This document shows positions 41,774-61,585 of a stretch of 64,000 nt of DNA, piece after piece. The translations under genes were made by a program, and so were the position numbers. Positions within the stretch are counted from its first letter, which is position 1, and each line of letters opens with the position of its first letter. The notes beneath the pieces were generated by a model. That model searched no databases. It worked only from the letters and a program-made list of their open reading frames with translations, and was not told where the DNA came from. This DNA is from an uncultured virus (IMG/VR IMGVR_UViG_3300035520_000941) (Duplodnaviria > Heunggongvirae > Uroviricota > Caudoviricetes): the IMG/VR virus record IMGVR_UViG_3300035520_000941, one strand, 5' to 3'.

Positions 41774-42280
41774 TGTAAAATAAAATAAAAAAAGACTAAG
41801 CAATACCAGTACTATGCTTAATCTATTAACTATTATACTTAAAATGTTATAAAAGTCAATAGAATAATTCAAATATTGGAGGAATTGCTTAAAAAAGTTA
41901 TTTCTTTTATTTTTTACTTCAAAATCTAATATAATGCTTGATGAGGGTATCTATGAAAATATGTTACTAGAATAGGCAAGTTGTGTTGTAAACCGAGGCA
42001 CATTTTCAAATTTCGGTCGTGTTCATATTCGTCATAGTGGAATTGGGATATGACATAAGGTCAAAGTGAAATCTACGTCACACCACTGAATAAGTAGGGG
42101 AGGAAATGCTTGGTATCGTGAGATACGGCGAGTCACAACGTTTAGTTTATGGGCAAGTATATTAATGTGACCCTACACTCATTCGACGACTTACTGCGAC
42201 GAAAGAGAATAAAGACCCTTTTTTCTAGGGTCTTTTTCTATCCTCTTCTCTAACTCCAACTCTGAAAGAGTTGGGGTTTT
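41774..42280 (+). ncRNA. ~500-nt structured non-coding transcript (candidate replication primer RNA)
   Basis: TTGATA-17-TACAAT promoter; GC-richer than flanks; many helices, GUGA and GAAA tetraloop hairpins; no ORF. Confidence 0.6.
41785..41826 (-). ncRNA. ~40-nt antisense countertranscript to the 5' end of the 41774 RNA
   Basis: TTGACT-16-TATAAT (41832-41859); AGATTAAGCA/TGCTTAGTCT stem + U7. Confidence 0.65.
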
Positions 42281-43889: not shown

Positions 43890-43986
43890 AAAAAAAATAC
43901 AGAGTATCTTCCGATACCCTATATTTAGCCCGTACCTCAATCAGAGTAGATTGTTCAAATCAAATGGTCGCCAACTCCATTTGATA
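43890..43986 (-). ncRNA. Candidate sRNA 1 of tandem array
   Basis: TTGAAT-17-TATAAT; ATCAAATGG/CCATTTGAT hairpin; GGAA-tetraloop terminator. Confidence 0.6.
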
Positions 43987-44251
43987 TCATATATTATAAT
44001 ATATTAGCCCTTAATATTCAATAGGATTTTTGATTTTATACAGAAAAAAATATTTTGAATTCGATTTTTGAAAAAATAAGAAAAATTGGGTGGGGAACGA
44101 TTAATGTTGGAGAGCGGTTGTCAAGAAAAATACCCCCCTTTTCAAAATTTGAAAAAATAATAAAAAATTATCATAATGATAAAAAATATTTTTATTTTTT
44201 CGAGTGTCATTGTTATACTATGAGTGTACTTTTCATTAAAGACATGTTACA

Positions 44252-44279
44252 ACTTCGTATAATATCTATTATGTGAATT
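44252..44279 (+). other. dif: dif-like XerCD recombination site
   Basis: ACTTCGTATAA-TATCTA-TTATGTGAATT; 23/28 identical to B. subtilis dif as recalled (ACTTCCTAGAA-TATATA-TTATGTAAACT). Confidence 0.85.
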
Positions 44280-44505
44280 TATTAGGGCTATGTTATAACG
44301 CTATTCATTAGAATATATATAGCGTGCCTTTATATAGGCTTTAAATAGGCTTTTTAAGGGCTTTTATAGGGTATCTTTATTAATGTAGGCATAATATAAA
44401 ACGTTGCTTATATCGTAAATATGGGGCTTTTTTAGTACCCTTATAGTAGGCTATATATAGGTATGCAATGGGGCTTATTTAGGATTATCACAAATACAAA
44501 TAAAT

Positions 44506-44524
44506 AATAATGATTATTATTATC
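44506..44524. promoter_or_regulatory. Fur-box-like site
   Basis: AATAATGATTATTATTATC, 16/19 to GATAATGATAATCATTATC; AT-rich background weakens it. Confidence 0.4.
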
Positions 44525-44541
44525 TTGAATATGGAACAATC

Positions 44542-44568
44542 TTAGCACTCACAATAACATAGTGCTAG
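44542..44568. promoter_or_regulatory. CIRCE-like HrcA operator
   Basis: TTAGCACTC-N9-TAGTGCTAG versus consensus TTAGCACTC-N9-GAGTGCTAA. Confidence 0.6.
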
Positions 44569-44616
44569 ATAGTTCGTACACGAACAATCTAATCGCGAGG
44601 GTCTGGAAGTGTCATT

Positions 44617-45310
44617 TTATCCAAAAATATATAATATATAATATATAATATATAATACATTATATAAAACAATATAAATAACTATATAATTATTATATAT
44701 ATAATAATAGTACATATAATACATATAATACATATAAGAATATATACATATATATAATATATTACTACATGTTATATATGTTGCTATATATATAGTAATA
44801 AGATACATATATACCCTATATATACATACATATTATATATAATAGTATTAAATACTATATAATAAAGTTCATTATATTACATATGAATATATCCAGATAT
44901 ATATAGAATATATATAACTCTACATATAATATAAAGCAATATATAATATAGTATGTAATACTACATAATATATATACAATTATATGCCATATATAAGCAT
45001 ATATTATATATTGGAATATTGCATATAATAATATATGTAGTAATATAACATATTATCATATATAAAATATGTCGTAAAATATAATAGTATATAAAATAGA
45101 CTATTATATAAACAAATATAATTGATTATATAATATGGTGTATTTAATCATATATTTAATTTTACAACATATATAAATAAACGATATATATTATAATGCT
45201 ATATATTCAAAAAAGCATATACATATAAAAATGGTTATACATATACTTTTTATACCTATTTAAAAAACATGATACAAATATATGAAAAGTACCATACTTT
45301 TATATATAAA
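44617..45310. other. ~700-bp TA-rich non-coding tract
   Basis: Dominated by TATA/ATAT; no credible ORF. Confidence 0.6.
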
Positions 45311-45416
45311 TACCATGCTTATATTTCAAGCGTGAATTATTTGAATAATTCAAAAGGCTTTATTTTTTGATTTTACAAGGGATATATAAAAAAGGCTCAT
45401 ATATGAGCCTTTAGGG

Positions 45417-45509
45417 TTATTTGATTTCTATAGCCAATTCAAATAAGGCAATAATCCCAAGAATTGGCAAGAACATCATAATAACCAGCATTTTAAGAAG
45501 TGAACGCAT
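45417..45509 (-). CDS. 30-aa hydrophobic peptide
   Basis: GAGGTGA RBS; MRSLLKMLVIMMFLPILGIIALFELAIEIK*; followed by terminator 45388-45412. Confidence 0.6.
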   Translation of the reverse strand: MRSLLKMLVIMMFLPILGIIALFELAIEIK

Positions 45510-46500
45510 TTAATCATCACCTCTTTCCATTTCAAAAATATAAAACATTATATCTTCAATTTTCAAAATATGTAGTTGATAGAGCAATTTAATTACTCTA
45601 TCTTTCAAAATAGCAAAATTCAAAATAACCACTTACAACATTTAATGAAGTAAATAATCTTTCTTGCATATTATTGCATAAAATTAAATTTTCATTTTTA
45701 ACTAATTCAGCATAACTAATTCTTTTAACTTTCATTTTTCCATCCTCTTCTTTCTAGCGATTTCTACCGCTTTTCTATAATACAATCTTATACTATATAC
45801 TGTATAAAGTCAACACTTTTCTAACAAATATTAAAAAAAATAATTTTTTATCACTGTGATAAAATTTTTAAACGAAAAATCACCAATTTTACCAATTTTT
45901 AGGAATTTCATAATAGATTATGTGATTTTAGGATTTTGACAAATAGTCAAAAATTCAAAAAAGCCTTATTATATCTATATTTTTTTAATTTTGTACCCTT
46001 AAAGTGGTAAAAAATCATCACATATTTTTTTCGGCTCAGACTAAAAAATGCGTATAATCGTTGTTTGGAGTTTTTAGGTATTATTTATCACGGAATAGAA
46101 AAAACGCCTTAGAACGCAAATTTAAGCTATTTAGAGCTATATTGGTATATTGCCGACTTTTTGACATTGCTTAAAATTGAAATATGGGCTATTTTTTGAA
46201 AACTACATAAAACAGAAAGGAAAACCATGATAAACAATATCAATATAACGCTATGTAGTATTGAATACTACATATAGATTTGATAGAAAATTATCACATT
46301 GATAATATTTATAAATCGTAAAAATTAAATATCACAATGCAAACAATATATCAAAGTGACTTGAAAATATCACGGCTATAAAAATATATCAATATGATAC
46401 AAACGTATCACGCTTAAAAGAATATATCACGATTATATATTTTTATTTGGATAATATTTTTTTATTACGCTAAGAAATGAAAAAAAAGACTAGATAAAAT

Positions 46501-46857
46501 CTAGTCGATTACGTACCCTCTTTTATTTAACTTATGACCTGCTTTCAAATCATTGTAGATTTGAATAATTCTTGTCTTTGAAGCTGTGATTTGAATAACA
46601 TCTCTTTCTAAATCATAATCGTGATAGAGTTCTCTTGTTTGAACCCCTAAATCATTGAAAGCATGTTTATTAGAGCATTCAATCGTATGATTACTAACTC
46701 TATAATTAACACCATTTATATTGAAATAATAACTATCATTTGTACGACTTGACTGTATCCCGTTATCAATGCAAAAATCTTCTATCTCTTTCATTTTGAT
46801 AGCAAACGCTTTTGCTTTTGATTTTGAAGGTCTATATCTATATGTCATATAATCCAC
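46501..46857 (-). CDS. Conserved hypothetical phage protein
   Basis: SYYFNINGVNYRVSNH motif. Confidence 0.75.
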   Translation of the reverse strand: MDYMTYRYRPSKSKAKAFAIKMKEIEDFCIDNGIQSSRTNDSYYFNINGVNYRVSNHTIECSNKHAFNDLGVQTRELYHDYDLERDVIQITASKTRIIQIYNDLKAGHKLNKRGYVID

Positions 46858-46867
46858 CTTATCACTA

Positions 46868-47089
46868 TTATAATAGTGCCTTTCTTAGATTTTGATTGTT
46901 CCAATCTAAATTTTTTATGTATAGAACATTATGTAAACGTTCTATAGCATACATATTTTTTTTGTTTAATGCTTGATAGAATAAGTCAATTAATCTATCA
47001 TCATCTTTGATTTTTTTACTGATTAATCCACTAATAATAACTAACCTGGCATGTTTTTGTTCAATACTCATTTCATTCCATTTTTTCAT
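46868..47089 (-). CDS. Hypothetical protein
   Basis: GAGGAGG RBS and upstream promoter 47124-47151. Confidence 0.65.
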   Translation of the reverse strand: MKKWNEMSIEQKHARLVIISGLISKKIKDDDRLIDLFYQALNKKNMYAIERLHNVLYIKNLDWNNQNLRKALL

Positions 47090-47408
47090 CTTTCAAATCC
47101 TCCTCATCTATTTCTATACTACCATTATATACTTTTTGAAGTATATTACAAGCATTTTCTTAAATTTTCATAAAATGAAAATGTAACAAGTTTTTATCAT
47201 TGTAATAATTATTTTTATCTTGCATTATATGATTGTATGTACTATCATAATAATGATGTATATTTAGGATTTGAACAATCCAAACAAAATTTATAGTACT
47301 ATGTTATATAGTTTCCAATACAATATTATGTAGTTTTGAATACTACATAAAATGTTAATGGATACTACATCATGGAACATCAACACCACATAAAGTGGTA
47401 TCGAAAAC

Positions 47409-47629
47409 CCGTGGAAGTAGTTACAAGTACCGTGGCATGAGTTACAAGCAGTGGGGGAAGTTACAAGCAGTGGGGGAAGTTACAAGCAGTGGGGGAAGTT
47501 ACAACTCTATAGGCATGCGAAAAGTGAAAGGAAATGTTGCAAGCCCATAGGGAGCGAGAGAGTGAAAGGAAATGTTGCAATTCTGCCGTACAAAATGTTG
47601 CAACTTGTACTTTACAAATGAGTTGCAAG
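47409..47629 (+). repeat. Iteron-like array with GTTRCAA core (9 copies)
   Basis: 3 x AGTTACAAGCAGTGGGGGA (47440-47496), 2 x AGTGAAAGGAAATGTTGCAA, further single cores. Confidence 0.85.
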
Positions 47630-47728
47630 TGATATAATAGGGAGTGCATGGAATGGACAAAATAGGCGAAAACCTATCACACATGCAATATCATCATGGA
47701 AAAAGAGCCTAAATTTATAGACTCTTTT

Positions 47729-47968
47729 TTATTTCTTTTTCTTTTTTGATTTTCCACCTCTTAAGGCATTCTTGATTGTTCCTTGCTTATTGCCAGATTT
47801 ATCAAGTTTTTCCAAAATATCCTTGTCGGTTTTCTTGTTCAATTTTAATCGAACAGATGTAGTGTTTTTTCGGTCATACTTTTCAACAGTATCTCGGTGT
47901 TTTTTGGTAGTCTTATAACCACCACCTTTCTTATTATTTGTGCTTTCATTAGTGCTTTTCTTAGACAT
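47729..47968 (-). CDS. Small basic ribbon-helix-helix-like DNA-binding protein
   Basis: KYDRKNTTSVRLKLNKKTDKDILEKLDKSGNKQGTIKNALR (strand-helix-helix pattern). Confidence 0.65.
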   Translation of the reverse strand: MSKKSTNESTNNKKGGGYKTTKKHRDTVEKYDRKNTTSVRLKLNKKTDKDILEKLDKSGNKQGTIKNALRGGKSKKKKK

Positions 47969-48030
47969 AAAAATTCAATCCTTTCTTTTTAAATTTTCTA
48001 ATTTTCAAAATCATAAATAGTGAAAATATA

Positions 48031-48156
48031 TAAGTATCACTTACGACCAGTATTTGACACGATTATATAAGTATCACTTACAATCACTCTATAACACATA
48101 CATGCGTAAGTATCACTTACTTTTTTAACACGCATGCACACATAAGTATCACTTAC
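48031..48156. repeat. Four exact copies of 14-bp TAAGTATCACTTAC
   Basis: Starts 48031, 48068, 48107, 48143; quasi-palindrome TAAGT-ATC-ACTTA. Confidence 0.9.
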
Positions 48157-48421
48157 ATTTTGTGCGATATAAAGCGATTTATTTATAAATAAAGCATAAC
48201 ACAATCTGGTTTTAAATTAAATAAAAAAGAGCAATAAATGAATATTGCCCTATTAAAATATATAAACCATAGAATAATGTCATATATGCCCTTAAAATGC
48301 GTTTTTAAAGCGTTTCAAGACACTTTGTAATATATCTTGAATAAATTATAGCATACTTATAAATATTCGTTAGAACGCAAATTTAAAGCAAATAACATTA
48401 TACATATTAAAACTCTTTGTT

Positions 48422-48880
48422 TTAATCCTTTGCCTTGTCTTTTTTGACTTTTCTAGTCGTTCGCTTTTTAGCAACTGTTTTTTTGCCTTTGCTATCATCA
48501 TTGTCATTTGATACTGGTTTATTCTCATCTGCTTTTTTTGAACATTTACAGTTACATTTCTTGATTTTTTCAAATTCATCAATAGCATTACTTAATCTTT
48601 CAATTTCATATTTTTGTTTGACTTTGGTTTTTTCTAGCCTTTCAATTTCATTATCTTGTTTGACCTTGATTTTTTCTAACAATACAATTTGTTCATTCTT
48701 TTCTTTCAATTCTCTTTTAAACCTACATCGTCCTTGTTCCACAATGTCATACTGGAGTTGCAAGTCCTCGTATTTTTTCTTAATCAATTCAATCTCTTTC
48801 TCTAATAAATCGTTGTGCCTTTTCAATGACACATTAGCCTTACTTAAATCTTCAATCATTTTTTGCTTTTTGCCTAACAT
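48422..48880 (-). CDS. Coiled-coil protein with basic tail
   Basis: RBS; internal repeat LEK.KVKQ..EIERL. Confidence 0.7.
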   Translation of the reverse strand: MLGKKQKMIEDLSKANVSLKRHNDLLEKEIELIKKKYEDLQLQYDIVEQGRCRFKRELKEKNEQIVLLEKIKVKQDNEIERLEKTKVKQKYEIERLSNAIDEFEKIKKCNCKCSKKADENKPVSNDNDDSKGKKTVAKKRTTRKVKKDKAKD

Positions 48881-49065
48881 TATATAAATTCTCCCTTCCT
48901 ATAAGCATTTTTCCATTTAATGCTATACTTTCATTATAATGCAACTACTATTATATTGTCTAACGTTATATTGTCGTTTTGAGTGCAATTTGACAATTTA
49001 TGTATAAATATGATAACATTTTAATTGTCTACTTGCTAATTAAATAAAAAAGGAGTGAATAACGG

Positions 49066-49704
49066 GTGAAGAATAACACTAGATTTATTAAATCAGTTAT
49101 TGTGATAGGCTTTTTATTTACAACAATAAGATTTAATACAGTAAGCACTTTTGGAGATTATGAATTAAATGATGTAGAAAGAAATAATTATGTAGAAGAA
49201 ACAATAAGTATTGAAAGTGCAAAAGAAGTTACAATAACCAAGCCAAAGATTGAGTTAAAAAAGATAAGCCTTAAAAAGAAATTTAGTGGTGTGAATAAGA
49301 CTTATATGGATTTGAAATGTATTACCAACAAATCATCTAAACAATACAAGATGAAAAGCGATTACAAATTGGATAGCAAAGGACATTACTATATCAATTA
49401 TAAGGACGAAAAATTCTATGTTGTGGCTTTAGGAAATTATTTTGGTAAGATTGGAGATAAGTTTAAAATAACATTATCATCTGGAAAAACCTTTTATGCA
49501 ATTAAAGGTGATACGAAAAGCAATAGACACACAAAAGAGCGTTACGCTCATAAAACAGATGGAAGTGTTATAGAATTTATCATCAATACGAAAGTCGCTA
49601 AGAAATATTATGGGTCGAACAATGGGTATGTATGCAACGGAAATTTAAACAACAGCGACTTGTGGAATGGAAAAATCGTGAATATATCAAAAGTAATTGA
49701 ATAA
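49066..49704 (+). CDS. Secreted/membrane-anchored cell-wall-hydrolase-like protein
   Basis: N-terminal signal; TYMD, YVVALG.YF, GDKF.ITL, IKGDTK, GSVIEFI motifs. Confidence 0.5.
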   Translation: MKNNTRFIKSVIVIGFLFTTIRFNTVSTFGDYELNDVERNNYVEETISIESAKEVTITKPKIELKKISLKKKFSGVNKTYMDLKCITNKSSKQYKMKSDYKLDSKGHYYINYKDEKFYVVALGNYFGKIGDKFKITLSSGKTFYAIKGDTKSNRHTKERYAHKTDGSVIEFIINTKVAKKYYGSNNGYVCNGNLNNSDLWNGKIVNISKVIE

Positions 49705-49730
49705 ATAACAAAAAAACATTATAATAATAA

Positions 49731-49876
49731 TGTGTTATAAGGACTAATTTCATATTGACTTTTTCTTCTTTTTGTATATATTTTTGATTACCTTTATATT
49801 TTTCTGTTGTTTTCCATTTTCCATTTTTAACCTTATAACGCACATGAGATACACATTAATTTGTGTATCTTTTTTT
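49731..49876 (+). ncRNA. Candidate ~145-nt sRNA with 88-nt U-rich loop
   Basis: TTGAAT-17-TATAAT; 12-bp closing stem; AGATACACA/TGTGTATCT terminator. Confidence 0.65.
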
Positions 49877-49949
49877 AATGATTAAAAAAATTTGATATAA
49901 TTGTTAAAAAAGTGTTGACTTTTCATTTACAATAGTTTAACATTAAATT

Positions 49950-50347
49950 GTCAAAGGGAGTTACCTAAGACAAAACGATTGTAAGAGTGACAACTGTATT
50001 ACAATCTATGACAACAAGGATAGACTTGTCGGCTAGGGCTTGCAATAGGTCGTTAAAAGGTGTAGAGCAAGCGAACTTAACTGTGTTGTGAAAGTTGAGT
50101 TGCCGTAAATCGGTGGGAGTGAAAACGTAGTATATTTCCTAAACGGCAGGACGTTATAATGCTTATACATTCTAGTCACTGTATAAGATACGTTTGGATA
50201 AGAGCATTGATTACTAGGCACGTTATAAGATTGGAAATGCAAGTTAGTTGTTCTTGTAGACTAATACCAATTACGTTGTGAGGGCAAATAAAAAAACAAC
50301 CCATTATCGAATTAAGATACACAAATAAAAAATGTGTATCTTTTTTT
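49950..50347 (+). ncRNA. ~395-nt multi-helix non-coding RNA
   Basis: TTGACT-17-TAACAT promoter, terminator 50314-50347, at least 8 helices, no ORF. Confidence 0.7.
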
Positions 50348-50425
50348 GCTTATTTGTTAAAAAAGTGTTGACATATACCACAAAAAGTATTATCATATAG
50401 GTGTAGAAAGAAAGAGGGAAGAAAT

Positions 50426-52315
50426 ATGAGAAAAGAATTAGAAAAAGAATTAAATATCTTAGGTATCAGTTATGATACTATGAAACAGTTTAAAACTGGT
50501 GAAAAAGCAGATAAGAAATTGAAAGAAAGATATTTAAAAAAATTAGATGAATTGGAAAATTCATTTGATACATTACATAAATATCAAATTATCAGTGACA
50601 GAAAATATTATGAATACATTGATATGATTTACGATTTGAGTATGTATATATTAAATGATAAATAATAGAAAAGGAGAGATGAGTAATGGAAACAACAAGA
50701 CAAAAAATTGAAAGACTAGGTAGAGAATACTTAGAAGATGAAAATTATAAAAAGGGGTTTATCAGTTTAGAATGGGTTGAAAAATTAAATAAAGAATTAA
50801 ATTTAACAAAACTTAGCGATTTAGAATTGGCGAATATGTGGGATATGGTTTATCTAACATTAGACCACAAATTCAATTATTATGATGGTAATGAAAATTA
50901 TATAAACGCTATTAAATGGATGGATGTTAAATCAGCATTTGTTGAAGTAGTTAATAAAATAGCAAGAGAAAGAAGATAATCGAAACTAGCCAATGGCTAG
51001 TCCAACAGAGATGACCTACTGTTGCTGATGAGATAGGTTGAGAGGAGATAAAAAAATTATGAAAAAGAAAGAATTAATTAAAAGAATTAAAATTGAAGTT
51101 AGTGAATATTTTGAATATGATGATAGATTTATTGATGAATTTATCCGTTCATTTTCAAAAAACGAATTGAGGAAAATCAAAGAATTTAATTTCCACATGA
51201 AAGATTATGATGACTATTCAAGAAATAGTTGCATGGTTTTTCATGAAGATGATTATAATGATTTTAGAGTCGACTTTGAAGATTAAGGAGGAGAAGAAGA
51301 TGAAAAAAGTATTAATTGGTTTAAGTTTATTTATGATTTTATTGTGGGATAGTTTAGCACTACTTACTATTCAAAAAACAACAACAGAAAGCAAAAATAC
51401 AACTGTTGTTGAAGTGCTTGATTTGATGAGTGATGATGAAAACATTATCATCAAAGACAGCAACTTATGTATTATCTATAATGGTTCTGTAGGTAATACA
51501 AAAGAAGATTTATTCAATAAAGATGTTGATTGCTTAGGCACAAGTGATGATACAGAAATGACAACTTGTATCATAATTAAATAAAATTGAAAGTGAAAGT
51601 ATTTATGATGTTTTAAAAAATTTTAAAAAGGAGTTAAAAATATGAAAGTAATTGATTTGTTTGAAATGGTTGGAGAAAATACAAATATTGATTTAATCTT
51701 TAGCGAAAGTAATGAGGTTGTATCAAGATATGATGGAAGAAATAGCATTGATGAAGAATATAATGATAAAGAAGTTATTTCTTTCAATCCCAATTGGATT
51801 ACAAAAACATTAGAAGTGATTATTGAATTATAAGTAAGTAATACTTACTAAAAAACAAAGGAGATAGAAAAAATGGAAAAATATAAATTAACAAAATTTG
51901 ATTATGAGTTATTAAAAAGATTAACTGGTTGTTACATCGAAATAATTGATAAAGGGATTATTAAGGCATATGACAGATTTAACATATTTGAATTAAAATC
52001 ATCGGGCTTAAATCGTCTTAATAAATTACCGACATATAAATTATTGAAAGTTGATGATATTTTAAATAATTATATATTGGACTATGATTAATTGGAAAAG
52101 TGGTAAAGAAAATGAAATACAGATTTAGAATTAACAATTCACAAAAGGGAAAATATCTCCCAAGAATTAATGGACTTGTTGAAAATGTTGAAGTTTTAGA
52201 TAAAAATGAGATTTATATTACAACTATTGATATAACACAAAACCAGTTGCAAATGATACAAAAAATCTTTTTTGGAATTACAGATAGGTCAAAAAGATTT
52301 GAAGAAATAAAATAA
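50426..52315 (+). CDS. Run of small early hypothetical genes (50426-50665, 50686-50979, 51038-51286, 51300-51584, 51642-51833, 51873-52091, 52100-52315)
   Basis: Tightly packed ORFs with RBS after a TTGACA promoter at ~50368. Confidence 0.65.
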
Positions 52316-52443
52316 AGGAGATACGAAAAATGAAATTGAAAATGAGTTTAAAGATGAAGTTAATGGAGTTATTATTTATAGGTTTATTTAGTGCGTTGTT
52401 TGTAGGAACAATGTACATTATGCTAATAGCAAATTAGAAAGGA

Positions 52444-52788
52444 ATGAAGAAAATGAGAGATTACATAGCAGAATTTAAAGCCTTGACTAAAGGCACTAGA
52501 TATAGTGATAGTGAAGAACTTTACATGGCTTTTAGACACATGGGAGTTGAGGGAGAAAGATTTGTGAACATGGTTATTGAAAACGACTTGAATGTTTCAC
52601 AAAGTCCATATTCCCAAAGTATCTATGCTTATAAAGGTGATGATGATATCACATGGAATTATAAGCCACAAGATAGTTTAAGAATTAGTGACCATTGGAA
52701 TTTTGATGGACACTGTATCACAAGAGATGGTATTAAGCGTTGTCTTATGATTTGCAAATATGACAATGGTATATATACAAGAATTTAA
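52444..52788 (+). CDS. Conserved hypothetical protein
   Basis: QSPYSQS.Y...KP.DSLRISDHWNF motif. Confidence 0.7.
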   Translation: MKKMRDYIAEFKALTKGTRYSDSEELYMAFRHMGVEGERFVNMVIENDLNVSQSPYSQSIYAYKGDDDITWNYKPQDSLRISDHWNFDGHCITRDGIKRCLMICKYDNGIYTRI

Positions 52789-53314
52789 TCATGAAAGAGA
52801 GGAAAAGGAAAAAATGGAAAGAGAAAAGAATTTAAAGAGAATTAAGAATGATTATGGATTGGTTTTAAGATGGACTAATGGCGATGAAACAACGGATACC
52901 AAGTACTTCTTGGAAAATATCCATACACATGGCAACTATTATATTGATGATGTTGTTGCTATTGATTTCATTAAAAGCGTAACTGTAAATGGATTTAGAA
53001 ATGGTGAACGTGTATATGATAATTACATTGAATTGTTCAACATTCTAAACATTGAAAAGTTGCCTACATTTGGTGATGTGTTAAAACTTAATAAAATGAG
53101 TGGTAACAGATTGTCAAAAGAAACAAATACACCACGAATGACAATTTCAAATATTGCATGTGGGAACGTGAATGTTTTAAATTCACAATTTGGTTTTGTA
53201 GTAACGATTTGTGAAGTATTGGGTATCAATCCACAAGATTTATACGATTACTTGACTTTACATAAGTACGAAAAGAATTATTGTAAAATCAATATAATTG
53301 GCATTAAGGGATAA
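52760..53314 (+). CDS. Protein with C-terminal XRE HTH (start probably ~52814)
   Basis: MSGNRLSKETNTPRMTISNIACG...ICEVLGI. Confidence 0.65.
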   Translation: MTMVYIQEFNHEREEKEKMEREKNLKRIKNDYGLVLRWTNGDETTDTKYFLENIHTHGNYYIDDVVAIDFIKSVTVNGFRNGERVYDNYIELFNILNIEKLPTFGDVLKLNKMSGNRLSKETNTPRMTISNIACGNVNVLNSQFGFVVTICEVLGINPQDLYDYLTLHKYEKNYCKINIIGIKG

Positions 53315-53349
53315 AGGATATCTTAAAGCATATAAGTTATACTTAGAAA

Positions 53350-53365
53350 TGTTTCATGTGAAACA
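53350..53365. other. parS: parS site (Spo0J/ParB binding)
   Basis: Intergenic TGTTTCATGTGAAACA, 15/16 to TGTTNCACGTGAAACA. Confidence 0.8.
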
Positions 53366-53371
53366 ATTAAT

Positions 53372-54631
53372 ATGAAAGAGAAGAGAGGAAAATTGATGAA
53401 AGATTGTGAAACTAACTTCTGTATTAATGATGATTATGCTAGAGAAATTTCAATTAGTAGTTTAAATTGTGGCATATCAAAAGCAGAAATTGTAAAATTT
53501 AAAAAGAATGGCTCATTCTCTATAAAATTAGATGGAATAGAATTTGCCAATAAAGTTATTTCATTTGAGATAAAAGAGGGAATAGGTGGAGCAACAGAAT
53601 TAACACTCACATTTCCAATACTAGATTTAGAAATGAGAAGTGAATAAAAATGAATGGGATTAAAATTTTGTGGCTTTTTATATTTATTATAGGTGTGCCA
53701 CTAACAGTTTCATTAATATTATTAATTTATGAATATTGTCAATTGATTAAAGAAAGGTGATGTTATGAACATGATAGATGACGTAATGGAAAGAATATTA
53801 ACGGGGAAAGGAGAAAACAATGATTTTATTACATTAAATAATTATATGTATTATTGTTTTACAAATGAAGAATTAGATTTGATTATATGGAAATTTAAGG
53901 AACTTGAAAGTGTTTTAGGGATGGATGTTTCATTTCTGCTATGGAAGGCAGAACAACAAAAGAAGTTCCTTAAAGAAAGGGAAATGGAAATTGAAGTTGT
54001 TTATTATGATTAATAACAAATTGACTAAACTGATTTAAAAAAGTAGAAAGGATTAGAAGAATGATTAAGACAGACAATTTAAACGAATATATAGCATTAT
54101 CAAGTTTAATCAATTATTGTGAAAGTAAAGATTGTAATAGATGCGTGTTGTATAATGTGGTTTGTAGATTTATTCCAATATCATTTGAAAAAATGAAATT
54201 AGATAAAGAACAAAATGAGATAATGAAAAACACGTTAAAAAATTCTTACAAACAAGAACAAGAAAAACAAAGTGAAGAAAAAAGTGAGGAAAAATCGAAC
54301 AATGAAATTATATGACATGTTAAATGATACGCTTTTTTATCAAAAAACAAGAATATATTATTGCGATTGTTTTGGGAGATACATCCCAATATTTAAAGGT
54401 AAAGTAAACAACGCAAGAGGTGATGTAGATGAAGTATGGAGTCACCTTAAAGATGATATTGATATTTACTTTTGTAAAAATGACACATTAATTATTTTTA
54501 CTAAAGATGAATATTATGAAGTTGGATTAGATAAAAGATACGCAAATTCATCACAATGGAACGAAAAAAATAGACCTTACAAAAAGTATTCAGAGATTAT
54601 GGGAGAAATAAATAATGATGAATTATTGTAG
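53372..54631 (+). CDS. Run of small hypothetical genes (53372-53647, 53765-54013, 54061-54315, 54302-54631)
   Basis: Co-directional ORFs with RBS. Confidence 0.6.
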
Positions 54632-55042
54632 AAAGAAAGGATATGAGGTGAGATGAAATTTAGAAAGAAACCTGTGATTGGTGAAGCATTATATGTATAA
54701 GACATTAATAATATTAGCAATATTAAACATTATTATATTTTTATTAATGATTTTAAATGTTGATAGTTTGGTTATTGAAACATTTTATAAAATTATGAGT
54801 GGCATAACGTTGGCAATTGCTATCTTTGTGCTTTTTTATGAATGGGGTAAACCATAAGAATAGAGGTAAAAATGTATGACACTAGAAGAAATGAATTATT
54901 TACAAGAAAAATATGGCATTGAATTTATGCCAGATATGGACAATTTGGAAAATTTGAACAAAGAGCAAGTAGAAAAGCAAATGCAAACATTAAAAGAGGT
55001 ATTTATGAATATCTATAATGATGAGGGAGAAGATGATATTTA

Positions 55043-55420
55043 ATGGATAAAATGAACAAATATGAAACGGCAATAAATGAACTTGTTAGCATTGCATACG
55101 GAAATTGTAGATTATCTAAAAATGGTATTGCATGTGAAGAATGTTTAGATATAAATAATTGCAAATTTAGAAAAACCATTAATATATATAAAGATATATT
55201 AATAGAACTTATCGACAACCCACCATTAAAAAAAGAAGATTTAAAAGATGGCATGTGGATTTGGGATAACAAAGAAAAAGTTTATATTGAAGTTGGTTTT
55301 GATGATGATAATGATAAATGGGTATTCTATTTCTATGATGACCCTTTGTTTGATGTAATGTATGCTTATCCATTAAAATTAGAAGATGAAAGATACTATA
55401 AGAGAGGAGTGAAACAATGA
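55043..55420 (+). CDS. Hypothetical protein, paralog of 55417 and 58951
   Basis: PLKKEDL..MWIWD...RYYKR. Confidence 0.7.
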   Translation: MDKMNKYETAINELVSIAYGNCRLSKNGIACEECLDINNCKFRKTINIYKDILIELIDNPPLKKEDLKDGMWIWDNKEKVYIEVGFDDDNDKWVFYFYDDPLFDVMYAYPLKLEDERYYKRGVKQ

Positions 55421-55794
55421 AATTGAATGAAGAAGAATACTTAGATATAATTAATTTTATTGAATTTTTTTATGTTGATAATTTGCAAGCAACAGCAGGA
55501 TTGCGCAAAGAAAAATCTAAAAGTTTACAAGATAAAGATACTAAAAGCATGAAAGATAAACTAAATTTATTGAGGGATTTAGTATATGAATACTTTGATA
55601 CCCAACCTTTGACTTTTAAAGAATTAAAAAATATGCTAGGTGAATGCGTTTATGATAGTAAAAAGAAAAAATTAACATCAATTACTTTAGTAGGAACTGA
55701 CCTTTTAATGTTTAAAGATAATGATAGTTTATTTTATATAATCCCTAGTTACGAATGTAATAATAGATTTTATAGAAAAGAGGTTGAAAAATGA
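55417..55794 (+). CDS. Hypothetical protein, paralog of 55043 and 58951
   Basis: MKLNEEE...EYFD.QPLTFKEL...VYDSK...RFYRK. Confidence 0.7.
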   Translation: MKLNEEEYLDIINFIEFFYVDNLQATAGLRKEKSKSLQDKDTKSMKDKLNLLRDLVYEYFDTQPLTFKELKNMLGECVYDSKKKKLTSITLVGTDLLMFKDNDSLFYIIPSYECNNRFYRKEVEK

Positions 55795-55893
55795 AAAATT
55801 TTGAAAAATTTGAAGATGAAATAAAACGTTATGGCTCATATTTTGGTATAAACAAAATAACAGGAAAAATAGGAAAAATAGGAGGAACAAAAA

Positions 55894-56319
55894 ATGGGCG
55901 TAACAATTGAAAACAAAAACAAATCCATTGATATGGGCTATGGCGGTTTTCATCGTCTTAGAACGAAAGTTGCTTATTTGACAAATGAGGAATTGGGAAA
56001 GTTCTATGAAAAATCCGTTGAAGGAATGGGGTTGCTTGATGAAGAAAGAAAAAAATTCTACAAAGAATATGATGAAAGATTAAACCAAATTGATAAAGAA
56101 TTGAATGTTTCACCGTACATCTTAGATTTTTTGTATGCTTCAGATTGTGAAGGAAAATTATCAGCAAAACACTGTAGAAGAATATACAATGTCATCAAGG
56201 ATTATGATGACGATGTCTTATATGGATATTGTGGAAGACCTGATTGTGCCAAATTCAAAGATTTTAAGGCAATAGTCAAGGATTGCGTTGACCATAATAT
56301 TCAAATGCGTTGGTGGTAG
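55894..56319 (+). CDS. Conserved hypothetical phage protein
   Basis: GYGGF..LR..VA; FLYASDCEG. Confidence 0.75.
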   Translation: MGVTIENKNKSIDMGYGGFHRLRTKVAYLTNEELGKFYEKSVEGMGLLDEERKKFYKEYDERLNQIDKELNVSPYILDFLYASDCEGKLSAKHCRRIYNVIKDYDDDVLYGYCGRPDCAKFKDFKAIVKDCVDHNIQMRWW

Positions 56320-56794
56320 AAGAAATATAATAAAAAAAGGAGATAAAAAATGAGTTATTTTAAACATCAAAAATTAATCAGATTAAAATTAACGAACAGA
56401 ATGTTCAAAAAATACCATATAGATGAAATATGTCCCGATAATTTTCTTTTTGATAAGGAGATTGAATATGAGGGAACAGATAAAGAAAGATATTTTAATG
56501 AAAATCCTAGCAAGACTAGAACTAGAAAGAACTTCTTCACAATGCCACCTACCGATTAAAAGATAGAAATAATAGCAAAACAAAAGACGAATATTTACAA
56601 GTCTTAAAAAAATTTAAAATGGACTATATTTATCAAGATAAATCGTATAAAATGGAAACATACATTAATGAAAATTTTGAAAAATTAATGCAAACGATAT
56701 ATTCTATCAATAATATCTATGAACATGATGATTGGATTGATAAATAATCGTTTATAAACATTAAGAAAAGAATAAAAGGAAAAGGGAGAAAAAT

Positions 56795-57910
56795 ATGAAG
56801 ATAAACATTAACAAAGATGAATTACTTGAAAACTTAAGAAAGGCAAATATGATTGTCAATAAAAGCCACCCTAACGAAGTGCTAAAAAACGTATTAATTG
56901 ATATTAAAGGTAGCACAATGGATTTAACGACAAGTGATGGAACAATGCGAACTATATTAAGTATTGAAGAAATAAATAGTGACGAAAATACAAGTTTTTG
57001 TGTCAATAGTCAATTGTTCTTAGATTGTTTGAAGAAGATTAATAAAAATGAAGTAACAATCAATACTAGTGATAAAGATTTTATCATCAAGAGTGGAAAT
57101 AGAAAGTTTAAATTGAATATTATTAGTAGTGATAAATACCCTAATTTTGCTGATAATGAAAATATTGGTATCATAATTATAAATGCAAACGATTTATTAA
57201 GAGGTGCTATGTCAACAGTTAAAACAGCCTCAAGAAATGAAACACGACCTATCTTAACTGGTATCAATCTAAGCAATAGCGAAGATTTAAAAAGCATTGT
57301 CTTAAGTGCAACAGATAGTTACAGATTATCAAAAATAACATTGCCAATTAGTAACAAATTAAATAAAAATATAAACGTTACTATTCCATATCAATTTTTT
57401 GAATATTTAAACAAAGTCATTGATGATAGCGAAGAAGAAGTTACAATCTTATTTAATGATACTGAAATAAAACTTGAATATAAAAATCAATATATCACAA
57501 CAAGATTAATTGATGGAAGTTATCCTAACATTAATAGAATTTTACAAGGTGAAAGAAGAAATAGAGTTAAAATCAACAAAGAGTATCTAAATGATATGAT
57601 TGAATGTTCATTCTTTAAAGATGATAAGAATTATATTATCACAATGGATTTTGATGATAATAAAATGACATTATTAAACAAGAATAACGAAATGGGCGAG
57701 TTTAAAGAAACTTATGAGATTGAACATAATGGAAATAATTTAAGCGTTTCCGTTAATGGTGAATACTTGAAACAAGCATTAAGCACATTTGAGAGTGATT
57801 ATGTCAATTTATATTTTGAGGATACACCTTTAAAACCTTTTGTAATTGTTGGTTGTGAAGATGTTGATAGAACGCTTATTCAATTAATGTTGCCAGTAAG
57901 AACGTATTAG
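56795..57910 (+). CDS. dnaN: DNA polymerase III beta sliding clamp
   Basis: 371 aa; TRPILTG, ATDSYRL, RLIDGSYP, NGEYL, LMLPVR. Confidence 0.95.
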   Translation: MKININKDELLENLRKANMIVNKSHPNEVLKNVLIDIKGSTMDLTTSDGTMRTILSIEEINSDENTSFCVNSQLFLDCLKKINKNEVTINTSDKDFIIKSGNRKFKLNIISSDKYPNFADNENIGIIIINANDLLRGAMSTVKTASRNETRPILTGINLSNSEDLKSIVLSATDSYRLSKITLPISNKLNKNINVTIPYQFFEYLNKVIDDSEEEVTILFNDTEIKLEYKNQYITTRLIDGSYPNINRILQGERRNRVKINKEYLNDMIECSFFKDDKNYIITMDFDDNKMTLLNKNNEMGEFKETYEIEHNGNNLSVSVNGEYLKQALSTFESDYVNLYFEDTPLKPFVIVGCEDVDRTLIQLMLPVRTY

Positions 57911-58046
57911 CGTATATTCAAAAATGCTGTTTTAAGGCATTTTAAGGGTTTTTAATTAAACACTATAAATTTATAAAGGAATAATAAAACGCTTGTCAAA
58001 AGCGTTTTAAACGCTGTTTAAGAGTAAAAAGTAAGGGAGTGGCAAC

Positions 58047-58730
58047 GTGAAAAGATATTATGTTTTAGACAAGAAAGATATTACAAATATTGTTGATGTT
58101 GGAGATAAGAAAACATTAATGAAAAAGTATAATTTTGAAGATGAAAAGAAGTTTATTTATGTAACAACTATAGGAACTGAATTTAATGGATATTATTTTA
58201 TTCCTACAGATGATGACAAGATACAAAGAGATGAGATGTTTGAGGACGTTTTATTTCATGTGAACGAAAAAGCAAATATTAAATATTATGTTAATTGCAA
58301 TGGCTTTTTCTTTTCTATTAATCAAAAAGGGCAAAAAAGAATGTTAAACCCGTGGTATGATAAAAGTTGCGATAAGTTGAAGTTAAAAATAGGCAAAAAA
58401 GGATATTATTGTGCCACGTTGATTGCTAAAACATTTAGAAAAGATGAATATAATGAAAAAGATATTATTTTGTATAAAGACAACAACCCCAAAAACTTAA
58501 ACTATAAGAATTTAGTTTTTGTAAGCAAAAGTTTCTTTGTAAACAATATTGCTAAAAGACATCCAAAAGCACGTAAATTAGGTGTATTTGATGAAAATAA
58601 TAATTTAATTAAACAATATGATAGTATCAGAAAAGCAAGTAAGGATTTATATGTTGATAGAAATTGCATTGTTGCAATCTTAAAAGGAAAAACTAAACAT
58701 AAAATGTTTGATATTAGATATATAGAATAA
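58047..58730 (+). CDS. Degenerate HNH / NUMOD1 protein
   Basis: LIAKTF, YKDNNPKN....NL, YDSIRKASKDL. Confidence 0.6.
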   Translation: MKRYYVLDKKDITNIVDVGDKKTLMKKYNFEDEKKFIYVTTIGTEFNGYYFIPTDDDKIQRDEMFEDVLFHVNEKANIKYYVNCNGFFFSINQKGQKRMLNPWYDKSCDKLKLKIGKKGYYCATLIAKTFRKDEYNEKDIILYKDNNPKNLNYKNLVFVSKSFFVNNIAKRHPKARKLGVFDENNNLIKQYDSIRKASKDLYVDRNCIVAILKGKTKHKMFDIRYIE

Positions 58731-58755
58731 TATTAATCAATTTTATGAAAAACAC

Positions 58756-58931
58756 TTTACATGGTTATATTTTGGTATTATAATAGTAAATGTAAATTAA
58801 ATAAAAAAGTCCAACAAGAATGAATGGGGTCATTCAAGTGAACTTTACAAGAGTATTTTATCATATAGATAATAAATATTCAATGAATTTCTCACTTAGT
58901 GAATACCCTTTCATTTAAGTGAGATTTTTTT
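58756..58931 (+). promoter_or_regulatory. Promoter + attenuator leader of replication operon
   Basis: TTTACA-17-TATAAT; terminator TCTCACTTA/TAAGTGAGA+U7; antiterminator 58819-58841. Confidence 0.75.
58799..58848 (-). ncRNA. ~50-nt antisense countertranscript of the attenuator
   Basis: TTGAAT-17-TAAAAT with extended TG (58855-58883); AAGTTCA/TGGACTT stem + U-run. Confidence 0.7.
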
Positions 58932-58950
58932 GTAGGAGGGAGGAAATTTT

Positions 58951-59277
58951 TTGAAGTTAAACAAGGAAAGGTGTATAGAGGCATTAGAGTTTTATCATAC
59001 TAAAATATCTGGCTATGAAAAAAGCATAACCTCATATACTATCCTAAAAAATTTGATTGATGAGTATTTTAATGATAAGTCTTTGAAATTTGAGGATTTA
59101 GAATTTGAAATGCCTATCTGGGATAGTAAGGATAAGGAATGGTGTATACTCAAAAATGCCACATCTTCATTATTTTTTGGTAAACAATATATTTCATTAA
59201 TTTGTTTTTCAAACACAAATGATATTGTTGACTTGGAATGGGAAGATGATAGATTTTATAGAAAGAAAAAGGAATAA
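58951..59277 (+). CDS. Hypothetical protein, paralog of 55043/55417
   Basis: GGAGG RBS + TTG; LKFEDL...PIWD...RFYRK. Confidence 0.7.
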   Translation: MKLNKERCIEALEFYHTKISGYEKSITSYTILKNLIDEYFNDKSLKFEDLEFEMPIWDSKDKEWCILKNATSSLFFGKQYISLICFSNTNDIVDLEWEDDRFYRKKKE

Positions 59278-59279
59278 AA

Positions 59280-59462
59280 ATGAATTTGACAAAAAAAGAA
59301 ATTGATATTCTCATTGAATTAGCAAGAGAGAAAAAAGATTATTGCGAAAAGAAAATGATATGGTATGAAAAAAATCATGAAATTGAAGAAGAAGAAAAAT
59401 ATAAATGGTTAACAAAAGAATACCTTATCATTATTCAAAAACTAAAAAATATGAAAGGGTGA
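59280..59462 (+). CDS. Hypothetical protein
   Basis: Short ORF in operon. Confidence 0.55.
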   Translation: MNLTKKEIDILIELAREKKDYCEKKMIWYEKNHEIEEEEKYKWLTKEYLIIIQKLKNMKG

Positions 59463-59468
59463 TTGTAA

Positions 59469-60107
59469 TTGTTAGCGATTAATGGATTTAATCAAGATAA
59501 AATGAATATATATAATATTGATGTTGCTGATACTTGCATTATTGACTACATTATTTATATTTATTCATGTGATATTGTGCCAAGTATTATTATTAATGAT
59601 ACAAAGTACATATCATTTAATAAAGAGAAAATTAATAAGAACCTAAACGCTTTAAATCTAAAAGAGCGTGGATTAGAGCAAAGAATTAACAATTTAATTG
59701 CAAGTGGGTTCTTTGAAAGGAATGTTAAATTTGTAGATAAAAAGAAACGTAGTTTCATAAAACCAACTAATTTATGCTTGTTTATTAAAGACTTTAGTTA
59801 TAACATTTATGAAGAATTTGTGAAACATGAATGTGCAGACTATAATAAAGAAGATGTTGAAAAAAGAACTATCAAAGTCAAACATCTTTATAAGGAGTGT
59901 AAACATGTTAAGTTCACTGATGAGGAATTAAGTAAACTTAAACAAGAATTTCCTTTTGATTATGAAACACAAATAATGAATTGCGAAAATTATTGTGAGT
60001 CAAAAGGTAAGAATTATTCCAATTATTTACAAACAATAAGGAATTGGAACAAAGGAAAGAAAAATATGAAAAATACAAATATTGATGTTGGAGGGCTTGA
60101 ATTTTAG
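59469..60107 (+). CDS. Putative replication initiator / replisome organiser
   Basis: INGFNQ N-terminus, wHTH-like segment, HVKFTDEE..KL...Y.ESKGK.Y.NY..TIRNW; upstream of helicase. Confidence 0.7.
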   Translation: MLAINGFNQDKMNIYNIDVADTCIIDYIIYIYSCDIVPSIIINDTKYISFNKEKINKNLNALNLKERGLEQRINNLIASGFFERNVKFVDKKKRSFIKPTNLCLFIKDFSYNIYEEFVKHECADYNKEDVEKRTIKVKHLYKECKHVKFTDEELSKLKQEFPFDYETQIMNCENYCESKGKNYSNYLQTIRNWNKGKKNMKNTNIDVGGLEF

Positions 60108-60110
60108 AAA

Positions 60111-60371
60111 ATGGAAGTGAACAAAATAAAATTAAGTCACGACCAATTAACAAGTATTTTTCAAGAATTACGCTTGTATTATCCTAATAACCCATACAAA
60201 GATTATAATGCGAATGAACTTAAAGTGATTTTAAAAATGTATTATGAGTCTTTGAAATATTATGATGAAAGTATAATACGAAAACGAATGACAAAGTATG
60301 TCGAAAAAGAAAAATTTTTTCCTCAAATTTGTGACTTAATCCCCCAAGAGAGCGATTTTAGAGGATATTAG
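60111..60371 (+). CDS. Helicase loader/inhibitor (SPP1 G39P-like)
   Basis: YYP...L..Y...KFFPQICDL; between initiator and helicase. Confidence 0.6.
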   Translation: MEVNKIKLSHDQLTSIFQELRLYYPNNPYKDYNANELKVILKMYYESLKYYDESIIRKRMTKYVEKEKFFPQICDLIPQESDFRGY

Positions 60372-60373
60372 AT

Positions 60374-61585
60374 ATGAACGAAACTGAATATGAATATGAA
60401 ATAATTTGTATGTTGATATGCAACCCCCAATGTATCAACGAATGTGAATTAGAGAGTAAACACTTTTCAAATGATTTTTATAAAAAGATTTACCCTTTAA
60501 TTGAAAAACAATACAAAGAAAAAGGGATTATAGATTTCTATGAAATAGAAAATAAATTTAGTGGCTTTTATTCTTTTGCGTTAGAATGTATAGAACATTA
60601 TGTTACATCTGCAAATTTACATTATTATATCGAAAAAGTTGAAAACAACTATAAATTAAGGAAATATAATGAAATAATTGATAAATGCAACAATGGTTAT
60701 ATAGATTTTGAAGAAATGCAAAATGAATTAGATAGCGTTAAAAATGAGTTTATTAAAACTGGTGATAAGAATAAATTGAGTGAAGAAGAAATTTATAGAG
60801 TTATCACAAAAGAGAATGAAATGCTTGAATTTGATAATTTTAAGCAATTAGAAAACAATATATCATTTATTAAAAATGGTATTCATGTTATTTCTGCACG
60901 TACAAGTGTAGGTAAAAGTGCTTTGGCAATCAATCTAATGAATGATTTGTCAAAAAAGTACAAGTGTATATATCTCAATATGGAAATGAATGAACAAAAG
61001 ATATATCAAAGAATGATTGCTTGTGAGTCGAATATTCCAATTAGCAATTTTACTAATTTAAGTGAAACGCAATCAAATACTATCAAAAGAACTATTAAAA
61101 ATATTCATAATAGAAATTGGAAAATCATGAACGGCTCAAAAAGTGTAAGAGGTATCAAGTCGATTATTGCTAGAGAGAGCAGAGATGAGCATTTGATATT
61201 ATTTGTCGATTACATTGGGTATGTGACAACTGGCAAAAAACAAAACGATAGAGAGCGTATTGGTGAGGCTGTAAGAGAGATACAATTAATGACAAAAGAT
61301 TATGATGTAACTGTATTTCTATTGGCTCAAATTAATAGAGATGGAAATGATGAGCCTACTTTAGTTAATTTGAAAGATAGTGGAGAAATTGAACAGAGTG
61401 CCGAAACTGTATTGATTTTACACAATACATGCAAAGACTTAAACGAAGAACAGCCAATTTATAGTATACTTGTACCCAAAAATAGAAATGGAAAACAAGG
61501 AAAATTAGAAATAAAATTCAATAAGCCTTGTCAAAAATTTGAAGAAATAGTAGAGGGTTATGGTTATGGAAACAGAGTTTATTAA
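60374..61585 (+). CDS. dnaB: DnaB-like replicative helicase
   Basis: SARTSVGKS, LNMEM, FVDYI, LAQINR, LKDSGEIEQSA, KNRNG. Confidence 0.95.
   Translation: MNETEYEYEIICMLICNPQCINECELESKHFSNDFYKKIYPLIEKQYKEKGIIDFYEIENKFSGFYSFALECIEHYVTSANLHYYIEKVENNYKLRKYNEIIDKCNNGYIDFEEMQNELDSVKNEFIKTGDKNKLSEEEIYRVITKENEMLEFDNFKQLENNISFIKNGIHVISARTSVGKSALAINLMNDLSKKYKCIYLNMEMNEQKIYQRMIACESNIPISNFTNLSETQSNTIKRTIKNIHNRNWKIMNGSKSVRGIKSIIARESRDEHLILFVDYIGYVTTGKKQNDRERIGEAVREIQLMTKDYDVTVFLLAQINRDGNDEPTLVNLKDSGEIEQSAETVLILHNTCKDLNEEQPIYSILVPKNRNGKQGKLEIKFNKPCQKFEEIVEGYGYGNRVY

Follow-up and report, generated by a model that had tools for sequence, protein, structure and literature searches.

A tailed phage without an integrase of its own carries an exact copy of its likely host's dif site, suggesting persistence through host Xer recombinases

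How might a tailed phage that encodes no integrase persist in dividing cells? This question is raised by a 64,000-nt stretch of DNA from an uncultured member of the Caudoviricetes (IMG/VR record IMGVR_UViG_3300035520_000941), referred to below as the window. At 44252..44279 (+), the window contains a 28-bp site, composed of a XerC arm, a 6-bp centre, and a XerD arm, that is an exact copy of dif, the site at which chromosome dimers are resolved, in the chromosome of its likely host. A first-pass annotation of the letters alone had described the surrounding region as part of a phage-plasmid behaving as a mini-chromosome. The window, which has a GC content of 27.5%, is most of one tailed-phage genome of the siphovirus type, ~72 kb in size. 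The exact host dif, together with the lack of an integrase, suggests that the phage probably borrows the Xer recombinases of its host to persist in dividing cells. The best-supported description is of a tailed phage that lacks an integrase and is built as a substrate of the host Xer system. On balance, we consider Xer-based persistence of a phage of Candidatus Onthovivens the best explanation of the observations as a whole.

The site at 44252 agrees with the dif site of Bacillus subtilis at 23 of 28 positions, whereas the next best position in the window agrees at 20. Sites this good are expected by chance at ~0.0024 per window. The sequence also fits the dif sites that Kono et al. 2011 list for Clostridia (PMC3025954). 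A second Xer-type site matching at 21 or more of 28 positions is not present in the window, and a dif module with a second Xer site was ruled out, the next best candidate reaching just 20/28. To look for the host, one genome from each of 185,579 species was scanned with both arms fixed and two of the six central bases left free. Five matches were obtained, four in Lacticaseibacillus species and one in a metagenome-assembled genome, Candidatus Onthovivens MAG8465 (G006). Lacticaseibacillus was ruled out as the host, its sites matching at 26/28 and its GC content being 49–58%. In G006, by contrast, the site is identical at 28/28 positions (G006:C46:11122-11149) and lies in a locus of 29% GC, which fits the 27.5% of the phage. 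Judged by sequence, the likely host is therefore Candidatus Onthovivens, which belongs to the Bacilli and has a small genome of low GC content. The sequence common to phage and host is ~29 nt long and has no flanking homology, which indicates that the site is not a recently captured stretch of host DNA. A DNA search of 40001-60000 against 60 genomes of the genus returned the dif match and short AT-rich noise, nothing else, and no convincing spacer from a clustered regularly interspaced short palindromic repeat array. The dif called in the first-pass annotation is thus better founded than had been claimed, being a 28/28 match to a single-copy host site.

The site occurs once in G006, with no other match at up to three mismatches, and lies 3.8 kb from the gene for a 299-aa tyrosine recombinase; a second tyrosine recombinase (314 aa) and a 988-aa FtsK are also encoded. 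Across the genus, exactly one dif match at up to three mismatches is found in 41/60 genomes, and a control pattern gives none. The genus consensus and the phage dif have in common a G at position 6, which is specific to the genus, and a TATCTA centre, and among the genus genomes, G006 alone matches the phage site at every position. In 11 of 13 host loci, the site marks a switch of the GC skew from positive values to negative ones, as expected of a replication terminus.

The phage itself contributes no recognizable recombinase. Three IMG/VR contigs that are 99.98–100% identical to parts of the window extend it leftward by 6.2 kb and rightward by 1.0 kb. CheckV completeness values for contigs of the same phage (45% for 32,818 bp, 25% for 18,236 bp, and 10% for 7,071 bp) imply a genome of ~72–73 kb, such that ~71.2 kb has been inspected. 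The ends of contigs L001 and L018 do not overlap, and the genome is not closed; scans from the contig end returned the same contig alone, and a metagenome scan from the left end of the window returned nothing. Gene searches covered 97 open reading frames (ORFs) of the window, 10 ORFs of the extensions, and the contigs of the same phage. In these ~71.2 kb, no tyrosine or serine recombinase (PF00589 included), resolvase, or transposase was detected, and searches of Pfam, PHROGs, and NCBIfam gave no ParA, ParB, ParM, TubZ, or plasmid Rep. The earlier statement that no integrase, ParA, or ParB is in view thus holds in the window and in 7.2 kb beyond it, and the integrase or par system outside the window that had been named as its refutation was not encountered in those 7.2 kb. 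As the enzymes are encoded by the host and not by the phage, the simplest interpretation is that XerC and XerD act on the circular phage genome.

We propose the following scheme. The phage genome would circularize, and its dif would become a substrate for host XerC and XerD with FtsK. A crossover between the phage dif and the chromosomal dif would place a prophage at the terminus, with both gene arms running in the direction of both replichores, and the same Xer enzymes could release the prophage as a circle. In an alternative mode, the circle would be kept as an episome, with dif merely resolving dimers. Integration at the host dif, in the manner of IMEXs (integrative mobile elements exploiting Xer), is the mode that we tentatively favour, and it accounts for the data as well as or better than a plasmid does. 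An episome that uses dif for dimer resolution is also possible and nearly as likely as integration. On the left of dif, the GC skew of the phage is −0.213, and on the right, it is +0.213; the corresponding values around the host dif are +0.125 and −0.143. With these opposite skews, a dif-by-dif crossover would give the order + + − −, and the polarity of the host would be kept. In addition, the phage site is identical to that of the host at the centre and at positions that vary among hosts, which favours integration because dimer resolution alone would not need such identity. We infer from the sequence that the phage is temperate and that Xer acts on its site; which of the two states would dominate is judged in the same way.

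A comparison with known users of Xer places this phage close to, but outside, the described cases. According to PMC12715192, the IMEXs, which include the filamentous phages CTX, VGJ, and TLC, dif-type double jelly-roll phages, and a gonococcal island, lack an integrase of their own and use a dif-like attachment site and host XerC/XerD. Such elements are described for inoviruses, double jelly-roll phages, and islands (PMC12715192; 10.1101/633727). The present phage likewise has a dif that matches its host, no recombinase of its own in ~71.2 kb, and a host with a XerC/XerD pair. However, the described cases are non-tailed phages or islands of Proteobacteria, whereas this is a 72-kb tailed phage with a host among the Bacillota. 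Their sites are degenerate or folded, whereas the phage site is a perfect dif; and they are integrated, whereas no integrated copy was seen here in 60 genus genomes, and no XafT-like factor was detected. The Xer sites of plasmids and secondary chromosomes (cer, psi, pdif, and dif2) resemble the phage site in another respect: a core for host XerC/XerD keeps an extrachromosomal circle monomeric. The cer and psi sites have diverged cores and ~180 bp of accessory sequence; the phage core and centre, in contrast, are identical to chromosomal dif. The two chromosomes of Vibrio avoid identical dif centres, which prevents their fusion.

The phage is not the only one to carry such a site. A Firmicutes-type dif pattern matched 19 viral loci in IMG/VR, with fewer than ~2 chance matches estimated for the collection. 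Two of the 19 are inoviruses (Rep_trans; Zot and secretin), which are of a known kind, one is a Mu-like provirus whose end lies 72 nt from the site, and one, which is bounded on each side by Xer-type recombinases, is probably host flank. Four tailed-phage genomes of 39–49 kb (G342, G345, G347, and G348), all 100% complete by CheckV and containing SU10-type portal, adaptor, or capsid genes, each have exactly one dif-type 28-mer, which is intergenic; G345, G347, and G348 have assembly end repeats of 114–127 bp. No PF00589 protein was found in the four, and no recombinase, ParA, or ParB was found among their 147 ORFs of at least 110 aa. A single mismatch separates the G345 site from the dif present once in several of the Bacillota genomes sampled; of the 401 genomes in the sample, 33 have one match to it at up to two mismatches, and the control has none. 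With at least four complete integrase-less tailed phages bearing dif, a wider class may exist; as a tentative proposal, these would be "tailed IMEXs", an unrecognized class of integrase-less tailed phages of Bacillota that persist via host dif, XerCD, and FtsK. The same genomes bear on the idea that the site is a functionless relic of host DNA acquired by chance. Uptake of host DNA by phages does occur, and the exact site is known from one phage lineage alone. However, phage and host have just the 28–29 bp of the site in common, with no homology in the flanks, and at least four unrelated complete phage genomes also contain a single dif-type site, with fewer than ~2 chance matches estimated for the whole collection. 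A relic is consequently very improbable. Runs of five to seven C or G occur near the phage dif (44086-44148) in AT-rich DNA, and similar runs lie ~50–200 bp from dif in the unrelated phages G342, G345, G347, G348, and L051. The viral contig L065 contains two dif-like sites in tandem, ~90 nt apart (L065:4001-4150).

Several observations count against persistence through Xer. No lysogeny module was recognized among the genes of the window, and no repressor was identified. Wherever the phage has been assembled, in the window and in contig L004, phage DNA flanks dif on both sides. None of the 60 genus genomes has two dif sites; none of the twelve metagenome contigs with the dif core, all of which are host-like, encodes proteins of this phage; and the phage portal is absent from 301 genomes of the host family, from bacterial genome contigs, and from G006. 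A prophage flanked by two perfect dif sites would be expected to excise readily, as is known from dif-flanked cassettes. Furthermore, ~1–2 kb of the phage genome has not been seen, a figure that rests on the approximate size estimate of CheckV. Finally, the other four phages with dif resemble virulent podoviruses and encode a DNA polymerase themselves, and dif may therefore serve a purpose outside lysogeny. The absence of integrated copies says little, however, because the phage is rare.

In a different account, the phage is lytic only and dif serves the lytic cycle or the takeover of the host, either by resolving dimers before packaging or by drawing XerCD and FtsK off the host chromosome. 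It would accommodate the lack of a recognized lysogeny module and the failure to find a lysogen among the 60 genus genomes, the 301 family genomes, and the 12 dif contigs. It would also suit the other complete dif-bearing phages, which lack a recombinase and encode DNA polymerase A, MCM or SNF2 helicases, and structural proteins of the SU10 type. Three observations make it unlikely. The site matches host variants at the level of the species, the centre included, and this match is not needed for dimer resolution within the phage alone. The ~9 kb around dif are dense with operators and encode a small membrane peptide and a secreted protein, resembling a maintenance or immunity region. Literature searches gave no lytic role for dif. 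Xer-based persistence thus remains the explanation that we prefer.

The first-pass annotation had gone further, proposing a plasmid prophage kept as a mini-chromosome by dif, a parS site, two countertranscript RNAs, and a toxin peptide acting together. In that model, dif would resolve dimers, host ParB and Soj would segregate the phage via the parS-like site, the RNAs would set copy number or immunity, and the peptide would kill cells that lose the phage. Part of this picture stands: the dif copy is real and matched to the host, integrase and partition genes are missing, and the host encodes Xer proteins, FtsK, and an rsmG-soj-parB operon. Iteron-like repeats, a possible ribbon-helix-helix (RHH) protein, and a 30-aa hydrophobic peptide also lie within 4 kb of dif. 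Other parts fail. The phage dif lies in the trough of the cumulative skew, that is, at an origin-like pole, which is contrary to a mini-chromosome, for which a terminus-like pole would be needed. Motifs that are aimed at dif in the host aim away from it in the phage; the counts for one 8-mer, for example, are 46:0 around the host site and 3:17 around that of the phage. The searches gave no plasmid Rep, ParA, ParB, ParM, or TubZ, and a phage-type set of DnaD, loader, and DnaB is the sole replication module, with no plasmid-type initiator or partition gene. Phage-plasmids of the P1, N15, and SSU5 types, and extrachromosomal mycobacteriophages with parABS, are similar in combining phage structural genes with an integrase-less genome. 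However, the known ones, as described in PMC11652158, have Rep and partition genes of their own, in many cases together with a resolvase such as Cre, whereas none of these was found here in ~71.2 kb. We regard the complete mini-chromosome as doubtful, and the evidence on its remaining components is given below.

The parS-like site is a near-palindrome, TGTTTCATGTGAAACA, in an intergenic gap at 53350..53365. It matches the consensus at 15/16 positions, and its sole mismatch is the central C of the central CpG. Such sites are expected at ~0.005 per window at up to one mismatch, and the shuffle mean at up to two is 0.17; the site is single in the window. Its presence, which had been noted earlier, is thus unlikely to be due to chance. 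Its role is less secure, as it is single and off-consensus at the centre and has no counterpart in G006, which has no parS at up to one mismatch genome-wide and none at up to four mismatches in the parB locus. In the genus, parS at up to one mismatch occurs in 16/60 genomes compared with 8/60 for a control pattern, and a perfect canonical site occurs in 5/60, which would suit a host-driven segregation. However, none of the genus GTTTCAnnTGAAAC sites listed has the TG centre of the phage site. In some Onthovivens genomes, two or three perfect parS sites lie within 0.6–2.4 kb of one contig (G047:C63:1517-3869 and G020:C25:2089-2675). A single parS is able to stabilize an unstable plasmid in B. 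subtilis via Spo0J and Soj. In the φ29 family, phage-borne sites for host Spo0J/ParB make use of the host segregation machinery, and φ29 itself is described as having five parS sites that are used for entrapment in spores (PMC2731898). The present phage differs in having one off-consensus site rather than five, and its host genus lacks Spo0A in 30/31 searched genomes. Spore entrapment as in φ29 was ruled out, Spo0A being found in just 1/31 genus genomes. A parS-like site is found in 0/4 of the other complete dif-bearing phages. The site at 53350 may be bound by ParB, or a phage protein may use it as an operator.

The two proposed RNA switches are real small-RNA or terminator-like elements. The first, at 41739..41915 (+), consists of a promoter (41739-41767, 10/12 matches) followed by a ~140-nt hairpin RNA with an A-rich 5′ end; the second, at 58756..58935 (+), consists of a promoter (58756-58784, 11/12) followed by a ~140-nt rod-like hairpin RNA. 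Both fold into one long hairpin, in which the A-rich 5′ end is paired with a U-rich 3′ end. The RNA at 58792-58935 folds at −37.8 kcal/mol (z = −5.2), which is equalled in 0/200 shuffles, and that at 41772-41915 folds with z = −2.2. The similar 5′ starts at 41774 and 58791 were confirmed, lying just 3′ of near-consensus promoters; the common start pattern has four matches in the window compared with 0.29 expected. Both elements lie downstream of an HNH endonuclease gene, 58791 directly and 41774 ~1 kb away, and the U-run end of the 58756 RNA lies just before the replication genes. Their reading as countertranscript switches was not sustained. Neither RNA overlaps a gene or has a target that could be found, no convergent pair over a rep, ant, or toxin target, as antisense control would have, is predicted, and neither belongs to an Rfam family at E up to 1. 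A facing promoter pair, which would suit the mini-chromosome, is predicted at 41774 alone (41739-41767 (+) and 41859-41832 (−)): the strong opposing promoter (11/12) faces this RNA, whereas weak ones alone face the RNA at 58791. However, promoter-like sites are barely enriched over chance in this AT-rich window (184 compared with 157.5 ± 11.9 expected). Further non-coding segments were noted. Two GC-rich segments of 300–400 nt, at 41940-42240 and 49950-50350, each lie between a promoter and a terminator; they are not alike and have no Rfam match, and 49950-50350 folds better than its shuffles (z = −2.6), whereas 41940-42240 does not. A ~90-nt RNA at 47611-47735 has a strong promoter (11/12, with a TG extension) and shares its terminator with the convergent gene for a 79-aa protein.

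The same annotation had held that no classical cI/cro switch is present. This claim was not confirmed, because two Cro/CI-type helix-turn-helix (HTH) proteins are encoded at 38588-38848 and 52760-53314, and an operator-like palindrome recurs in the window. With these proteins and a dense regulatory region, the absence of a classical switch cannot be claimed. The palindrome, 15-bp TTATCAnnnTGATAA, is spread over 44168..47208, with perfect copies at 44168, 45848, and 46291 and one-mismatch copies at 46859 and 47194; seven copies occur in the window compared with 1.78 expected, and five of the seven fall at 44.1–47.2 kb.

These five copies lie in the ~9 kb from 41.4 to 50.4 kb, which are mostly non-coding, have plasmid-like features, and look like a dense regulatory and maintenance region with a putative DNA-binding protein. 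The repeat arrays reported there were verified with Tandem Repeats Finder (TRF) and as repeat families. Adjoining dif, helically phased ~11-bp repeats (TAGGCT-like) occupy 44328..44490; TRF gives a period of 11 and four copies at 44328-44370, and the extension to 44490 was made by eye. These repeats may act as accessory sequences or as sites for protein binding. They are followed at 44627..45330 by a low-complexity array of ~700 bp that consists of A+T alone and has a period of 17–18 bp (TRF at 44627-44976), and a short-read assembly of the same phage breaks within it, contig L004 ending at 44843. Farther on, at 47440..47504, a perfect 19-bp tandem repeat of 3.4 copies (TRF score 130, 100% matches) lies amid GTTACAA/GTTGCAA boxes and is iteron-like. 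Perfect matches to a promoter motif, AAAAGTGTTGAC, occur at three places, namely 45809 (−), 49908, and 50361.

Proteins encoded in this region have few relatives. A 30-aa hydrophobic peptide gene at 45417..45509 (−) is followed by a terminator-like hairpin (45412-45391 (−)), and its ribosome-binding site was read by eye. The peptide, which matches no Pfam family at E up to 10, is a candidate type I toxin or small membrane protein; the toxin-like peptide noted earlier is thus present as a hydrophobic ORF with a terminator, but the toxin assignment is still a weak lead. A type I system would also have an overlapping antisense RNA, for which no promoter was seen. Two orphan genes (118 aa and 73 aa) at 46501..47089 (−) are flanked by a 21-bp palindrome at 46253 and 47328; neither has a family in Pfam, PHROGs, or NCBIfam, and a tblastn search of plasmids and phages with the 118-aa protein returned no match. 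An orphan 152-aa protein and a 212-aa secreted protein are also encoded. The gene at 47729..47968 (−) encodes a 79-aa basic protein, a possible RHH regulator, and has four ATAAGTATCACTTAC boxes upstream at 48027-48161. The earlier RHH assignment of this protein gains no support from Pfam, where a search at E up to 10 gave DUF7626 alone, or from the PDB, which gave nothing. A weak lead persists below threshold, in that the named Atlas clusters closest to it, RHH_1, Arc, and RepB-RCR_reg, score 0.87–0.88, under the 0.9 bar.

The remainder of the genome is organized as two arms. Late genes run on the minus strand from 39914 down to 9188 and encode an ERCC4 nuclease, a terminase large subunit with an intein, an SPP1-type portal, an E-type major capsid protein, tail proteins, a 1452-aa fibre, and an endolysin. 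Early and replication genes run on the plus strand from 50426. The replication module at 56795..61585 (+), recognized in Pfam and PHROGs, comprises a DnaN clamp, a DnaD-like organizer, a G39P-like loader, and a DnaB helicase, and the operon also encodes an N6/N4 methylase and an SNF2 helicase. It resumes at the left end of the window with genes for a PAPS-reductase-like protein, dUTPase, a metallo-β-lactamase (MBL)-fold protein, Prp, a TerS-like HTH protein, and a Ro60/TROVE protein. The left extension adds a split C5 methylase, a 668-aa SMC/Rad50-like ATPase, RecT, and an HD protein, and the right extension is the remainder of the SNF2 gene. No tRNA and no Rfam match were found in the window. 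The phage has no close relatives by megablast of 44000-59000 against the phage and plasmid collections. The best tblastn identity of its portal is just 27%, the viral contig collection contains no relative of the 184-aa protein adjoining the parS-like site, and relatives of its RNase H (L005-L017) have no other window protein in common with it.

Additional features were observed in these arms. An intein splicing domain lies inside the terminase large subunit (34924-36765), and three free-standing homing-endonuclease genes are present at 24440-25369, 40113-40766, and 58047-58730, one of the GIY-YIG type within the tail module and two of the HNH/NUMOD type. The SNF2 helicase (63630-64000 and L001:1-981) and the C5 cytosine methylase (L018:15142-16156) are each divided into two ORFs, which could reflect a frameshift or an assembly error. 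The MBL-fold protein (2482-3306) has a weak match to Anti-Pycsar Apyc1 (E = 7e-4, under the cut-off), and a gene for a Prp-type cysteine protease occupies 3626-3937. The phage-encoded Ro60/TROVE protein (5439-6890) has a vWA domain. Proteins of this type act together with Y-like RNAs, and the GC-rich RNAs at 41940-42240 and 49950-50350 are candidate partners.

Our analysis allows this phage to be set among known strategies. Large Bacillus phages are described in PMC9703825 as having tyrosine recombinases of their own, and literature searches returned no report of a tailed phage carrying a host dif. Exploitation of Xer is known, and its use by a tailed phage is, with partial support, new here. 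A perfect host dif in a 72-kb siphovirus, together with the complete podovirus-type genomes, would extend Xer exploitation to the Caudoviricetes and the Bacillota. Classifiers keyed on integrase or Par genes would call such dif-bearing phages virulent. The exact dif match also assigns an uncultured host genus to an orphan phage and, if it is true that phage dif equals host dif, gives a sequence rule for host assignment. If the class proposed above is real, it would explain part of the gut phages that lack lysogeny genes and yet are temperate or in a carrier state.

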